A stretch of 64,000 bases of DNA from Escherichia phage DCP548: sequence record PQ671645.1; one strand, given 5' to 3'. A program made the translations under genes and the position numbers. Under the pieces are notes generated by a model. That model searched no databases, had not been told where the DNA came from, and was given only the letters and a program-made list of their open reading frames with translations. The first letter of the stretch is position 1, and each line of letters starts with the position of its first letter. Shown here one piece after another: positions 47,822 to 61,715 of this stretch.

Positions 47822-48151
47822 TTATACTCTAGGCTTTTGAGCTTGTTTGGTATTGGATTCCCATGCGGCTTTGGTAATTTTGTTAGCGGCATAACCAAAG
47901 GCATTAGATAGAACACCTTTAGAGTTGAATACATCCAATCCAATAAGTACACCGGCCGCGTTAAATTTAGGAGCAAAGTATGCATTAGTTTTAGAAAGAG
48001 CTTTTTTCAATTCAGGGTCTTGAACCAAACCATCAAAAACGCCTTTACTATTTACTTTATATGTTACTTTGGGATTTTTACCTTCTTCGATAGCAGCTTT
48101 CTGTTCCGCAGATAATGTAACTTCAGTGATAAACTCTTGATACGTTTTCAT
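47822..48151 (-). CDS. internal head protein (capsid-targeted)
   Basis: N-terminal MKTYQEFITE capsid-targeting leader. Confidence 0.7.
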   Translation of the reverse strand: MKTYQEFITEVTLSAEQKAAIEEGKNPKVTYKVNSKGVFDGLVQDPELKKALSKTNAYFAPKFNAAGVLIGLDVFNSKGVLSNAFGYAANKITKAAWESNTKQAQKPRV

Positions 48152-48176
48152 TTTGTTCCTATTGTTTTAATTTATG

Positions 48177-48491
48177 TTATTCTTTAGGGAAGTTTTTAGA
48201 GTATGCATCATAAAGTTTATTACCAATACGGCGGAAGACTTTAGCTGCAAAACGGTTTTCAGGGTTTTTAATCATGATTTGCATCATGTAAGTTCCTGCA
48301 TCCGAAAGAGCTTCTTCATAGTACCCATTAATTTCTTTAAGAGTCCTACGTTTACCACCAGGACCATCAACAGTAATTTTCCATTTACCTGTAGAAGTGC
48401 GGCTCGGTGGCTCAACTTGTTCAATCCAAATATAACCACCTTCAACGCGTTGGTTGGCGGATTCTGCAATAAATTCTTTATACGTTTTCAT
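48177..48491 (-). CDS. internal head protein (capsid-targeted)
   Basis: N-terminal MKTYKEFIAE leader. Confidence 0.7.
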   Translation of the reverse strand: MKTYKEFIAESANQRVEGGYIWIEQVEPPSRTSTGKWKITVDGPGGKRRTLKEINGYYEEALSDAGTYMMQIMIKNPENRFAAKVFRRIGNKLYDAYSKNFPKE

Positions 48492-48555
48492 TTTTTGTTT
48501 CCTTGTTTGTTTTGATAGAGTAATTATACCATATTAATACTTAAGCGTAAACAAT

Positions 48556-48816
48556 TTAAGCTTTACCGCCAGAAATAATTCCGAAGTTGTTAAAATCGTA
48601 TCCAATATCGTCAACATCTACTTTAGGACTTACTACAACATAAGCAATTTCACTACGTTTTGCATAGGTGTTGATTTCTTTACCATCGCCACCTAAGAAA
48701 GAATACCCATTACGTTTTAATGAGCCAAAGTCTTCCGCATCACCAATGAAAGCTTTAACTTTAAATTTGGGGTCTTTGGCATCTGCTTCAGTGATAAATT
48801 CTTGATACATTTTCAT
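48556..48816 (-). CDS. internal head protein (capsid-targeted)
   Basis: N-terminal MKMYQEFITE leader. Confidence 0.65.
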   Translation of the reverse strand: MKMYQEFITEADAKDPKFKVKAFIGDAEDFGSLKRNGYSFLGGDGKEINTYAKRSEIAYVVVSPKVDVDDIGYDFNNFGIISGGKA

Positions 48817-48822
48817 TTTTCC

Positions 48823-49236
48823 TTAGTAAATTGATTTACCATAGTATTTGTACCAAGTCGGACGTTGAGCAATTTTTTCGTCTAAGCGTGCTTGACTTAT
48901 CGCAATGGACGCTTCGGACGGGACATAATTATTACGAAATTCGGCAGGGATGTCGGAAATATCCTGGACAGTCGTGTCCTTGATTTTGAAACCACGTTTC
49001 AAGCATTCGGCGATTAGCTCGATTTGACGTAAACGTAAAAATTCGAGTTTGTCGTAAAAGAATGTTACGTGACCTGTGCCTAAGATAAATGTTGGAGAGA
49101 TTTTAAAATCCTTGACACGTTTACCATTTTGAACATGTTTACGGACTGCACCAAATACGCGTGGTAATTCACGATACTCGGCCATAAGATGTTGGTCAGT
49201 CAGTTCAGAAACAAGTGTTAAATTGATACGAGTCAT
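48823..49236 (-). CDS. denV: endonuclease V (pyrimidine-dimer DNA glycosylase) DenV
   Basis: Trimmed to ATG at 49236 ([12 protein letters not shown]...[19 protein letters not shown]) with GGAGGA RBS; matches remembered T4 DenV. Confidence 0.92.
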
Positions 49237-49242
49237 AATTTC

Positions 49243-49293
49243 CTCCAAGTAGTTGATGAATGTATAGTATCAAAACCCTTGGAGGAAGTAAAC
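49243..49293 (-). promoter_or_regulatory. early promoter with inverted repeat, upstream of denV
   Basis: Minus GTTTAC at 49293..49288; inverted repeat CTCCAAG/CTTGGAG. Confidence 0.5.
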
Positions 49294-49294
49294 A

Positions 49295-49576
49295 CTATTT
49301 TTCTGAAGCGCCTGAAATATATTTTTCAAGACGTTGTTTCATCAGCGAGCCGTTCTTAGCGATTTCTTCCGGTTTATCGCACATACGTAACAAGGCTTCA
49401 AGCTTAGCGATATCGCTGGTACGTTCAAATTTGCGAGTATCTATCTTACTAGCAAGTTCAGAAATACGTGCTAATAGACTTTCGGCTTCAACCAAAGCTG
49501 CACCTAACTTAGTTGCAAATGTGTCAGTAGCTTCGTTAAGAATAGATTCTGATAAAAATTCACTATATGTTTTCAT
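49295..49576 (-). CDS. internal head protein (capsid-targeted)
   Basis: Trimmed to ATG at 49576 giving [10 protein letters not shown] leader; start overlaps the lysozyme stop. Confidence 0.6.
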
Positions 49577-57809: not shown

Positions 57810-58274
57810 TTATTTAATTTGTTTAGCAGACCAGATACGGTCTTTAATAAGTTTTTGGATATCTTCAACATACTCAAGGCTATGAGCGTGAGGATTATCT
57901 TTGAAGCTATGTGCTCGGGCCAGTTTCTGGCCTTCTGTTTTGATTACTAAAAGCTCTTTAAGAATTGCTTCATACTTAGAAATAATTCCTTTGGCGATAT
58001 TTTTTTCTTGAGCGGCTTTAGGGTCCGCTTTTGGCGCAGGTGCTTTACCTGTAGCTTTCTGGAACAATTCACCTGATGCAGCTAGGCTTTTAAAAACTCG
58101 GCTAACAGTATTAGCATTAGTAAAACCTTCGGCTTTAAAATCTCTAATAAAACGGAAACGTTCTTCATCAGAGGCGTCTTTGTAAGAATATTTACCTGCT
58201 TGAATTGCTGCAATCGCAGCGGCTTTTACATCTGAACTAGATTGTTCAGTCAAAAATTCAGCGTATGATTTCAT
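57810..58274 (-). CDS. internal head protein (capsid-targeted)
   Basis: N-terminal MKSYAEFLTE leader; terminator just downstream. Confidence 0.6.
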   Translation of the reverse strand: MKSYAEFLTEQSSSDVKAAAIAAIQAGKYSYKDASDEERFRFIRDFKAEGFTNANTVSRVFKSLAASGELFQKATGKAPAPKADPKAAQEKNIAKGIISKYEAILKELLVIKTEGQKLARAHSFKDNPHAHSLEYVEDIQKLIKDRIWSAKQIK

Positions 58275-58320
58275 GTTGCTTTTCCTAAGTTAATTAACTT
58301 ATCTATTTATTATTATGCAA

Positions 58321-58659: not shown

Positions 58660-59052
58660 TTATTTTGGCATATCATCAATTTGCTCTCGACGCCGACGCC
58701 ATAGATTAATCGCTTCATAAACACATTCTGCGTTTGGTATATGACGGCAATAATATAATGATTCGCGTTTCTGGAACCGATGTTGTAATGGAATTTCGTT
58801 TAAAAGGTCTTTACGATCAAAGTATTCAAAACTAGTTAACCCAGAACGATTTTTAAGGAACTTCCAATGGCCAAATTCATTTTGGAAATAAACGTAATCA
58901 GCGTGTTGATATAACGAATTAATCAACCGGTCGGAAATAACTGTATCCTGTTCATTAAAATAAAACGTTAAATCATGAACTACCAGATAAATATTACCTT
59001 TCATATTTTCCTCACTTAAAGTTGGTCGAGACAGAAGGATTCTAACCTTCAC
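58660..59052 (-). CDS. hypothetical protein
   Basis: 130-aa minus ORF next to the homing-endonuclease-like gene. Confidence 0.4.
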   Translation of the reverse strand: MKVRILLSRPTLSEENMKGNIYLVVHDLTFYFNEQDTVISDRLINSLYQHADYVYFQNEFGHWKFLKNRSGLTSFEYFDRKDLLNEIPLQHRFQKRESLYYCRHIPNAECVYEAINLWRRRREQIDDMPK

Positions 59053-59083
59053 CTTTAACCTTAGAATGATTATATGCTATCCA

Positions 59084-59752
59084 TTACACTATAGAAGCAA
59101 TTAAATTGTTTACTTTATCATCTTTATAAACTTCAGAATAGTGGAGTTCATAAATTTCCCAGCCCAGGGATTTTATAATATCATGTCTTTCCTGATAATA
59201 TGGGGCCAGAATTTTCTTGTTATGATCGGAGTAATGTTGGTTACCGTTAACTTCAATAATTATTTTCTTATCCATCAAAGCAATGTCACAGGAATATGCT
59301 CTATTTTTAACAGGTTGATATTCCTCAACAAATTGTATATTTGCTTCTATTAATTTATTTTTCAAAAATTCGCACGGAACAGATTTGAATTTTGAATTCT
59401 TTTTCCAAGGGTGTTTATCTGGATTTTCCTTTAACCAGGTCTTCCGGGCTGCTGATATCTTTTGTTTGGATTCAGACGAATGCTTTCGTCCTGTGCCTGC
59501 AGCAGACAATTTTTCTCTTGTTTCTTCAGAAACAACTAAAGAAATGCCCTTCTTTTTGGCAACCATGAATTGATTTAAATTACCAGATTCTTTGCGTGCT
59601 TTATTCATAGCAGCGACTGCATTTTTAGAACCCTCTTTATAAGAGGCGAGTTTTGGATTTTCAGAACACCATCTGGTATGACTTGCCATCCATCCCTTTG
59701 GTTTATCAGAAATATCAAATTCTTTATTGCAGTGTTTGCAGATGCTCATCAA
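59084..59752 (-). CDS. homing-endonuclease-like protein (zinc finger + NUMOD3-like repeats + DUF559/PD-(D/E)xK-like C-terminus)
   Basis: 222 aa; N-terminal CKHC...HTRWC; SEETREKLSAAGTGRK and SESKQKISAARK NUMOD3-like repeats; C-terminal YSCDIALMDKKIIIEVNGNQHY. Confidence 0.5.
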   Translation of the reverse strand: MMSICKHCNKEFDISDKPKGWMASHTRWCSENPKLASYKEGSKNAVAAMNKARKESGNLNQFMVAKKKGISLVVSEETREKLSAAGTGRKHSSESKQKISAARKTWLKENPDKHPWKKNSKFKSVPCEFLKNKLIEANIQFVEEYQPVKNRAYSCDIALMDKKIIIEVNGNQHYSDHNKKILAPYYQERHDIIKSLGWEIYELHYSEVYKDDKVNNLIASIV

Positions 59753-59776
59753 AATACTCCTATTATATTATAAGAG

Positions 59777-59784
59777 TATTTATA
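59777..59784 (-). promoter_or_regulatory. late-promoter-like TATAAATA
   Basis: Exact TATAAATA on minus strand about 25 nt upstream of the homing-endonuclease-like ORF. Confidence 0.35.
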
Positions 59785-59808
59785 ATTGAATAGAGCACCG
59801 TTCTAAGT

Positions 59809-59883
59809 TGGTGACCCTGGCTGGTTTCGATCCAGCTACCTATCAGTTATGAGCTGACAGCTCTCCCATTGAGCTACAGGGCC
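59809..59883 (-). tRNA. tRNA, anticodon CAU (Met or Ile2), with encoded CCA
   Basis: Hand-folded cloverleaf on minus strand: acceptor GGCCCTG/CAGGGTC, D-arm GCTC-AATGGGA-GAGC, anticodon loop CTCATAA, T-arm GCTGG-ATCGAAA-CCAGC, 3' ACCA. Confidence 0.7.
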
Positions 59884-61387: not shown

Positions 61388-61651
61388 TTAAATACCAGCT
61401 TCGCGTTTAACATAATCGACGTAAGCTTGGATAGCTTTCTTGCTGGTAATTTTTACCTGACCACGACCATTGCCTTCTTTAGAGTTTTTCTTAACAACTA
61501 CATTACCATCTTTAACACCCCATACATGGACGTAAGTACCGATGTTTCGGTCGTAGAACATTGCATGGTCGTTGTTGTAAGAGAATGATTCGTAGTTCTC
61601 TGTCAGAGTAGAAGATTGAGATTCGGCGATAAATTCTTTATAGGTTTTCAT
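61388..61651 (-). CDS. internal head protein (capsid-targeted), ipI-position
   Basis: N-terminal MKTYKEFIAE leader; sits next to 57B where T4 has ipI. Confidence 0.65.
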   Translation of the reverse strand: MKTYKEFIAESQSSTLTENYESFSYNNDHAMFYDRNIGTYVHVWGVKDGNVVVKKNSKEGNGRGQVKITSKKAIQAYVDYVKREAGI

Positions 61652-61676: not shown

Positions 61677-61715
61677 GATAGGATGATAGTAACACACCAT
61701 CATCCTTATGTAAAC
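61677..61715 (-). promoter_or_regulatory. early promoter with inverted repeat, upstream of ipI-position gene
   Basis: Minus GTTTAC at 61715..61710; inverted repeat AGGATGAT/ATCATCCT. Confidence 0.5.

Follow-up and report, generated by a model that had tools for sequence, protein, structure and literature searches.

Six genes with a capsid-targeting leader in an RB69-like phage: probable internal head proteins and candidate anti-defence effectors

Tagged genes and their setting

The window, by which is meant the whole 64-kb stretch of DNA that was analysed, is a Mosigvirus and 97% identical to RB69, a T4-type member of the Straboviridae. A six-frame scan of the window for the pattern MK.Y.EF..E returns six matches, all of them at the first ATG of minus-strand open reading frames, against a chance expectation of ~0.0004 per window calculated analytically and 0 matches in 200 shuffles; a looser version of the leader pattern yields no additional match in the same 64 kb. 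The six genes that the first-pass annotation had singled out for this leader are thereby recovered in number, position and strand, as follows.

47822..48151, minus strand: ipA, 109 aa, leader MKTYQEFITE; mature part 99 aa, pI 9.7
48177..48491, minus strand: ipB, identified as Ip10, 104 aa, leader MKTYKEFIAE; mature part 94 aa, pI 9.6
48556..48816, minus strand: ipC, 86 aa, leader MKMYQEFITE; mature part 76 aa, acidic, pI 5.2
49295..49576, minus strand: ipD, 93 aa, Ip5 family; second L-N-E site at residue 15
57810..58274, minus strand: ipE, 154 aa, leader MKSYAEFLTE; mature part 144 aa, pI 9.6
61388..61651, minus strand: ipF, 87 aa, leader MKTYKEFIAE; second L-T-E site at residue 18

The span 47822-49576 accordingly holds four tagged genes and denV (48823-49248), which separates ipC from ipD, and the ATG of ipD overlaps the stop codon of the lysozyme gene e (ATGA). 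In other words, ipA to ipD flank denV beside e, in one of the two classical, polymorphic ip loci (e-denV, which runs from e to vs.8). The ipF gene sits in the other (ipI-57B), between trna.4 and 57B, such that five of the six genes fall within these loci; ipE lies outside both, with the e.x genes on one side and the tRNA cluster on the other. The mature parts are basic in four cases (pI 9.2-9.7, the lower value being that of the 77-aa mature part of ipF) and acidic or neutral in ipC and ipD.

The leader as a capsid targeting sequence

Mutagenesis of the capsid targeting sequence (CTS) of T4 has established that positions 4 and 7 matter for targeting, and positions 8 and 10 for processing by gp21 (PMC9026906). 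The leaders were judged by the criteria that PMC9026906 takes from Mullaney & Black 1996, namely an aromatic residue at position 4, Phe at 7, Ile or Leu at 8 and Glu, not Asp, at 10. In this regard, Y4 and F7 are invariant across all six, as targeting demands, and each has a gp21-type site ending at residue 10 (ITE, IAE, ITE, LSE, LTE and IAE from ipA through to ipF). Every residue shown by mutagenesis to matter is thus kept in six out of six, and the proposal that this leader is the one by which T4 directs proteins into the head is upheld.

At the nucleotide level the leader codons are 78% identical, compared to 29% in the next ten codons. Since synonymous differences occur within the leader codons (ACG/ACA/ACC, TAT/TAC, GAG/GAA, ATC/ATT), the conservation acts on the protein. 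Moreover, a CTS-bearing homologue of ipA, which adjoins denV in Dhakavirus AnYang, retains nine of the ten leader residues despite a cargo identity of only 32%.

It could be argued that some of the six proteins are not packaged at all, and that their common N-terminus is either a relic or a cassette acting at the DNA level, in recombination or in translation initiation, with the proteins exerting their action after synthesis in the cell. Three promoter-like sites are relevant in this context.

48523..48551, minus strand: sigma-70/T4-early-type promoter-like site upstream of ipB, TTTACG-17-TATAAT with TG; 10/12 positions, a consensus match only
61686..61714, minus strand: sigma-70/T4-early-type promoter-like site upstream of ipF, TTTACA-17-TACTAT with TG; 9/12 positions, a consensus match only
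58304..58311, minus strand: late-promoter-like AATAAATA, 29 nt upstream of the ipE ATG; 7/8 matches to TATAAATA, weak

The two early-type sites would suit expression and action within the cell; in the sigma-70-like scan overall, sites are no commoner than in shuffled sequence. The AATAAATA element comes just after a GC-rich hairpin and then a T7 run, none of the six genes has a perfect TATAAATA beside it, and the window as a whole shows no excess of TATAAATA. Also in keeping with a dispensable leader are the RB69 reference sequences, in which open reading frames are kept with damaged leaders (E10A in ORF123c, and residues 5-12 of ORF127c altered by a compensated -1/+1 frameshift), together with the existence of leaderless relatives of ipF, described below. 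The window's own six leaders, however, are all intact, and synonymous variation inside a strictly conserved peptide argues for selection on the protein rather than on the DNA. The ipE family points the same way, as leader residues M1, K2, Y4, F7 and E10 are invariant in it (511 records). Moreover, the CTS alone is sufficient for the packaging of foreign proteins in T4 (PMC3012670; PMC9026906). That any of the six should remain outside the capsid is, on this evidence, highly improbable.

Cargo families and their loci

Beyond the leader, the mature sequences were said by the first-pass annotation to be unrelated, and both kinds of comparison agree: pairwise BLAST of the six mature parts (residues 11 to end) finds nothing better than E = 0.7, and in profile-profile comparison of leaderless family alignments (hhalign) no pair exceeds a probability of 0.6%. 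A common cargo ancestry for ipA, ipB and, weakly, ipF, all of which fall in phrog_3966, was considered and rejected, given leaderless BLAST values of E > 0.7 and hhalign probabilities <1%; the grouping is probably driven by the shared leader. In Pfam and NCBIfam none of the six has a match above threshold, and a sequence search of the PDB returns no significant match to them. Apart from the leader, the cargos have no similarity to T4 IPI, IPII or IPIII or to Ip6, such that none is tied by homology to these inhibitors, nor is any cargo homologous to RB69 IPI, ORF156c or ORF149c, or to Ip7.

The genes ipA to ipD are orthologous to RB69 ORF123c, 124c, 125c and 127c, respectively. The first, ipA, is 97% identical to RB69ORF123c and occurs in 90 phage records, where the rows listed read 'hypothetical' and, once, 'endonuclease repair enzyme'. 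The second, ipB, shares a 90%-identity cluster with 'Ip10 [Enterobacteria phage Pol]' (CAA84455), from which it differs, as compared by eye, only at residues 5, 12-14 and the C-terminus, being otherwise near-identical and hence identifiable as Ip10; in its RB69 orthologue, ORF124c, the 3' end is frameshifted. The third, ipC, is 98% identical to RB69ORF125c (RefSeq: 'internal head protein'), matches phrog_2667, also internal head protein, with E = 6e-22, and is found in 217 phage records. A cluster look-up gave no Ip name for ipC, the cluster being contaminated by DenV sequences, probably via fused gene calls. Lastly, ipD, whose orthologue RB69ORF127c is again an 'internal head protein' in RefSeq, matches phrog_3499 (internal head protein, E = 2e-46), and its cargo aligns with Ip5 (bas37_0261 / fFiEco06 ip5) over 74 residues at 47% identity (E = 1e-18), which places it in the Ip5 family. 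The two differ in setting, Ip5 being found at the ipI locus with an IPI-type leader of 15 residues, whereas ipD lies beside e with a leader of ten.

For ipA, ipE and ipF no Ip name appears in the cluster or record listings inspected. All three are widespread genes currently labelled 'hypothetical', for which 'probable internal head protein' would be a suitable annotation.

The ipE gene matches phrog_2280, of unknown function, and is widespread, with its 511 phage records spread over Mosigvirus, Tequatrovirus and T4-like phages of Klebsiella and Yersinia; every row listed is hypothetical or unannotated. Its AF2 model (pLDDT 74.8) has an N-domain of three helices, which a K/A/P-rich linker joins to a long helical hairpin. 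Fold prediction of the mature region, recommended in the first-pass annotation, thus delivers a helical architecture for ipE, but no informative fold match. In RB69 the same locus holds a CTS gene, ORF149c, and in the RB69-like sister phage vB_Eco_mar005P1 it holds MAR005P1_00015, one of only five proteins detected by mass spectrometry in CsCl-purified virions, among which is also a 'prohead core protein'. MAR005P1_00015 has a CTS-like variant leader (MYTFNEFLAE...ITE) and is longer than ipE (208 aa against 154 aa), and the two are alike in locus, helical N-domain, K/A/P-rich linker and C-terminal helices; sequence comparison of the two gives a BLAST E value of 0.009 and an hhalign probability of 21%, too weak to establish homology. 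This five-protein set, the only Mosigvirus virion proteome found, contains no orthologue of any of the six.

The ipF gene matches phrog_13302, likewise of unknown function, occurs in only 35 phage records, and is only ever 'hypothetical' in the records and cluster listings inspected. The phage has no IPI, and ipF stands in its place; at the ipI position RB69 and Shf125875 have ipI with ORF156c, or Ip7 with Ip1, instead of ipF. Among 1.8 billion representative proteins, the only relatives of ipF are leaderless proteins of 47-88 aa. Two such relatives could be located, and both are found among the replication and early-function genes of T4-like phages; that of IME08 lies between gene 52 and motA, with arn.2-arn.4 and asiA downstream. 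The placement of these two fits a protein whose action would fall early in infection, in the cytoplasm of the host.

The description of the six genes as an 'expanded set' holds in relation to T4, which has three, but not in relation to closer relatives. Given that RB69 has seven in the equivalent region, Dhakavirus AnYang has five around denV and phage pEC-M719-6WT.2 has five consecutively at the ipI locus, six is normal for the group. What varies is the identity of the cargos: none of the six is present in T4, four are present in RB69, and the occupants of the ipE and ipI loci change from one close relative to another. This polymorphism, as read from the gene content, would be typical of an arms race.

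Candidate functions and known systems

Taken as a whole, the observations are best explained by the six open reading frames being T4-type internal head proteins, and this is considered probable. The sequence of events would be as follows. The CTS would bind to the scaffolding core as the prohead assembles, after which gp21 would cut behind Glu10 (I/L-x-E), and possibly also at the second sites in ipD and ipF, thereby freeing mature cargos of 76-144 residues among the packaged DNA; the genes for gp21 and the gp22 scaffolding core fall outside the window. By analogy with IPI*, the cargos would then be ejected with the DNA, to become active in the host before phage gene expression. Some of them at least would most likely block first-line defences of the host, the prime candidate targets being type IV (modification-dependent) nucleases directed against arabinosyl-hmC DNA, the form that RB69-like phages carry. 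The diversity of the cargos would arise in two ways: whole cassettes are replaced at three hyperplastic loci (e-denV, ipI-57B and the site upstream of the tRNA cluster), and leaders are grafted onto pre-existing small proteins.

An anti-defence role of this kind is a textbook hypothesis, to be found in Rao & Black 2010 (PMC3012670) and reportedly in Repoila 1994. For the six cargos it is the standard candidate role, such gene sets and this reading of them having long been known in T-even phages. That injected internal proteins are a known route of anti-restriction, as the first-pass annotation had it, is well founded: Ip1, Ip2 and Ip3 are inhibitors of GmrSD, each of a different variant (PMC12373910), and Ip6 counters McrBC (HIDEN-SEQ preprint 10.1101/2025.11.20.689424). 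When ip4-10 were set against a panel of GmrSD systems there was no reproducible inhibition (PMC12373910); to judge by the numbers, the families of ipD and ipB, Ip5 and Ip10, should be among those in the set.

This last result is in keeping with a mainly structural function, in which the proteins are packaged as basic, Lys-rich fillers that neutralise DNA charge and aid packaging or ejection, with no specific host target. The high pI of four of the six mature parts is as expected of DNA-associated filler proteins, the K/A/P-rich linker of ipE resembles histone tails, MAR005P1_00015 is abundant enough to figure in a five-protein mass spectrometry set, and lysines of the T4 internal proteins contact DNA phosphates (PMC3012670). 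A generic filler would, however, need neither unrelated folds nor rapid replacement between close relatives; ipC and ipD are not basic; and the ipF cargo, where it occurs elsewhere without a leader, cannot be filling a capsid. Moreover, all three T4 internal proteins were long thought to be fillers and proved to be specific inhibitors. As a general account of the six it is decidedly unlikely, although ipE individually may be a bulk DNA-associated internal protein, instead of or besides having an anti-defence role.

The proteins might also be packaged and injected but directed at something other than restriction nucleases, such as takeover of host transcription or of the nucleoid, other immune systems (abortive infection and toxin-antitoxin modules, for instance) or rival phages. 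The packaged Alt protein of T4 modifies RNA polymerase and affects the Mokosh defence, the IME08 relative of ipF has motA, asiA and the arn genes for neighbours, and the lack of a GmrSD target from the ip4-10 screen is also compatible with such targets. Since every internal protein of known function targets a type IV restriction enzyme, however, these other targets are regarded as unlikely.

Returning to anti-defence as the preferred role, each injected internal protein probably marks a host barrier that has to be beaten within seconds of DNA entry. No inhibitor specific to arabinosyl-hmC nucleases is known, except for the RB69-like IPI homologue, and the present phage carries ipF where that gene would be. 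The genes ipA, ipE and ipF make up a short list of candidates to be screened against type IV restriction in wild E. coli and Shigella.

A more specific reading can be offered tentatively, and its several parts, taken jointly, are held to be somewhat less probable than their opposite. It is that the leader serves as a 'time-shift' tag, the ipF cargo having gained a CTS in Mosigvirus and displaced IPI at the ipI locus, and that there is, in addition, a third hyperplastic ip locus that has gone unrecognised. If so, the ipF effector would be delivered pre-made with the DNA, rather than synthesised after entry. The third locus, home to ipE, RB69 ORF149c and MAR005P1_00015, would be that upstream of the tRNA cluster, and would encode a major two-domain internal protein with a K/A/P linker in RB69-like and many Tequatrovirus phages. 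The class of protein, the mechanism and the hypothesis are all already established, and conceptually nothing is changed; the new points are modest, being that the ipF cargo family is otherwise leaderless and that the ipE locus is a third ip locus.

Among known systems, IPI, IPII and IPIII of T4 share with the six genes the CTS, the gp21 I/L-x-E site, both classical loci, small size, a non-essential and polymorphic character and mostly basic mature forms; indeed, IPII and IPIII begin MKTYQEFIAE. They differ in being three in number, in having proven GmrSD targets and in bearing no resemblance to the six beyond the leader. The chemistry of the DNA to be protected differs too, RB69-like phages having ara-hmC where T4 has glucosyl-hmC. 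The polymorphic Ip4-Ip13 series of T-even phages, reportedly described by Repoila et al. in 1994 and including Ip5, Ip6, Ip7 and Ip10, has the same conserved leader, swappable cargo and hyperplastic loci. Within it, Ip6 (Bas37_0260) is a small, CTS-tagged protein encoded at the ipI locus, which is the position of ipF here, and has no detectable similarity to the six cargos. The Alt ADP-ribosyltransferase also enters the prohead core, is processed by gp21 and is ejected with the DNA, but is a large enzyme without the ten-residue CTS cassette. Looser functional analogues from unrelated phages are the Dar proteins of P1 and the ejection proteins of T7 and P22, which employ other targeting signals in place of that cassette.

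The leader-bearing genes and their products

The window belongs to a T4-type Mosigvirus (RB69 group), being 97-98% identical between 47000 and 50200 to RB69, SSE1, p000y and some 100 further genomes, and keeping the gene order of RB69 and T4 (vs.8, denV, e, nudE ... tRNA, trna.2-4, 57B, 57A, 1). A first-pass annotation had placed six internal-protein genes here, a claim that a six-frame scan for the leader MK.Y.EF..E confirms in full, coordinates included, giving the following six matches and no more.

ipA, 47822-48151, minus strand, leader at the first ATG
ipB, 48177-48491, minus strand, leader at the first ATG
ipC, 48556-48816, minus strand, leader at the first ATG
ipD, 49295-49576, minus strand, leader at the first ATG
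ipE, 57810-58274, minus strand, leader at the first ATG
ipF, 61388-61651, minus strand, leader at the first ATG

By chance, about 0.0004 such matches are expected per window, and none occurred in 200 shuffles. The denV gene lies between ipC and ipD, the ATG of the latter overlapping the stop codon of the lysozyme gene e.

In T4, residues 1-10 of IPIII, the capsid targeting sequence (CTS), suffice for loading a protein into the prohead, with the targeting function in residues 4 and 7, while residues 8 and 10 direct the cut by the prohead protease gp21, a cut that is prevented if residue 10 is Asp (review of Black's work, PMC9026906). Tyr4, Phe7, Ile/Leu8 and Glu10 are present in all six ORFs and, moreover, a second L-x-E site follows within a few residues in ipD and ipF, which recalls IPI and Ip5, whose leaders have 15-19 residues. 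Codon identity between the genes is 78% in the leader as against 29% in the next ten codons, yet the leader codons differ at synonymous positions; in other words, selection acts on the peptide. Since these residues recur throughout and the two classical ip loci (e-denV and ipI-57B) account for five of the six genes, it is well supported by sequence that they encode CTS-bearing internal head proteins, for which packaging, cleavage and ejection are predicted. The mature parts, or cargos (residue 11 onwards), are unrelated, as first proposed: no pairwise BLAST match among them is better than E = 0.7, and hhalign of leaderless family alignments gives a probability of at most 0.6% for every pair.

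Orthologues of ipA-ipD and the locus of ipE

The products of ipA, ipB, ipC and ipD are orthologues of RB69 ORF123c, 124c, 125c and 127c (91-98% identity), 125c and 127c already bearing the RefSeq name 'internal head protein'. An ipA homologue also adjoins denV in Dhakavirus AnYang (32% identical, nine-tenths in the leader), and ipB shares a 90%-identity cluster with the Ip10 protein from phage Pol, a deposit accompanying Repoila et al. 1994. The ipD cargo is homologous to Ip5 (47% identity, E = 1e-18), which in Tequatrovirus phages follows an IPI-type leader and is found at the ipI locus; one cargo is thus present at two loci, each time with its own version of the leader.

In the RB69 reference (L001, NC_004928; 16501-16601, 15181-15493, 15152) three of these four orthologues are damaged: ORF127c by a -1/+1 indel pair, 22 nt apart, which scrambles leader residues 5-12 (MKTYMNFYQN), ORF124c by a frameshift close to its 3' end and ORF123c by replacement of the cleavage Glu10 with Ala. 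Either old sequencing errors or real tag decay in the laboratory strain would account for this. The 90%-identity cluster of the ipC orthologue (RB69ORF125c) also contains numerous 137-143-aa DenV sequences, presumably bridged by fused denV-ipC gene calls, and misleads if annotations are transferred from it; the ipC position is labelled 'endonuclease V' in one phage record (H132).

The ipE gene occurs in 511 phage records from several genera, annotated as hypothetical or not at all in every row among those listed, with leader positions 1, 2, 4, 7 and 10 invariant. Its AF2 model (pLDDT 74.8) predicts a domain of three helices, joined by a K/A/P-rich linker to a long helical hairpin, for which no informative structural neighbour was found. 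Some versions in the family (alignment A1, proteins P0081-P0083), for example in Shigella phage SfPhi01, are frameshifted directly after the linker and retain only the leader and N-terminal helical domain.

A third ip locus seems to exist where ipE lies, upstream of the tRNA cluster. This site is occupied in RB69 by ORF149c (MKTYAEFLTE...) and in the sister phage mar005P1 (L131, LR027390, 6284-6910) by MAR005P1_00015, which starts with a variant CTS and an ITE site, MYTFNEFLAETEVITE|A, and is recorded as 'confirmed structural protein by MS', otherwise hypothetical. Indeed, it is among only five proteins found by MS in CsCl-purified virions, together with capsid, sheath, core protein and Alt (Michniewski et al. 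2019). Its architecture resembles that of ipE, a likeness short of established homology. An IMG/VR homologue of MAR005P1_00015 (L072, 205 aa) carries the canonical MKTYNEFLNESVLNE leader.

Within the adjacent tRNA cluster, a 222-aa minus-strand ORF (59084-59752) combines a NUMOD3 motif with a DUF559/RAP-type endonuclease domain, and is flanked on one side by tRNA-Met (59809-59883) and on the other by a truncated tRNA-like remnant (59032-59093, covering Rfam model positions 6-65), where RB69 has intact tRNA-Arg and tRNA-Met. The whole (59032-59883) looks like a homing-endonuclease insertion analogous to T4 segB; a perfect TATAAATA lies directly upstream of the ORF (59777-59784).

ipF and its leaderless relatives

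The ipF gene is rare (35 phage records), its position being held by ipI and ORF156c in RB69 and by Ip7 and Ip1 in Shf125875. Among 1.8 billion representative proteins, the sole relatives of its cargo are leaderless, of 47-88 residues. In Dhakavirus (IME08, L005, NC_014260) the relative is an unannotated 73-79-aa ORF between gene 52 and motA (L005 2477-2716, record ~165974-166213), 66% identical to the ipF cargo and preceded by a hairpin, an early-type promoter-like GTTTAC-17-TATTAT and a Shine-Dalgarno site; another relative, from a metagenome, neighbours genes for a DnaB-like helicase and an Rv2179c-like exonuclease. The ipF cargo looks like a leader graft, and these relatives suggest that a CTS was joined to a small protein acting in the host cytoplasm. 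The ipF structure model was too poor for use.

Function and comparison with known internal proteins

The T-even internal proteins are described as highly diverse defence proteins in which the CTS alone is conserved (Rao and Black 2010, PMC3012670). Ip1, Ip2 and Ip3 were shown to inhibit GmrSD nucleases, a different one in each case, tests of ip4-10 giving no reproducible hits (Silas et al. 2025, PMC12373910), and Bas37_0260 counters McrBC (2025 preprint, 10.1101/2025.11.20.689424); Bas37 is phage KarlGJung, and we identify Bas37_0260 as Ip6. None of the six cargos was found to resemble IPI, IPII, IPIII or Ip6, or to have relatives in Pfam, NCBIfam or PDB, and an anti-defence role, the standard proposal already in the literature, would therefore be ascribed to them by analogy. 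Four of the cargos are basic (pI 9.2-9.7), a property that makes association with DNA a genuine alternative for them.

The description of an 'expanded set' holds against T4 only. None of the six cargos occurs in the equivalent 15 kb of T4, as against four in RB69. RB69 itself carries seven genes of CTS type in this region (123c, 124c, 125c, 127c, 149c, ipI, 156c), AnYang five around denV, and pEC-M719-6WT.2 five in succession at the ipI locus, between 57B and trna.4 (L009, 765-2286). In this last array, annotated throughout as hypothetical, three of the five leaders are variant (MNIKTYNEFLAE, MKTFNEFFNE, MQTLHEFLVE) and ipC-like, Ip5-like and Ip6-like cargos are included. An IMG/VR scan with the leader pattern gave at least 44 clean start-of-ORF matches, and at least some 25 of their cargo clusters include neither a reference protein nor any cargo of the window's six. 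A 227-aa ORF starting MKSYEEFIKE on uncultivated viral contigs (L051, L101) shows that the motif can precede much larger cargos.

The first-pass finding is real and correctly read. What is gained is that ipA, ipE and ipF can be annotated as probable internal proteins, together with two comparative points, the apparent leader graft in ipF and the apparent third ip locus at ipE. The gene set is typical for the RB69-like group, an ordinary complement of polymorphic internal-protein genes of which both the mechanism and the functional hypothesis are already in the literature.
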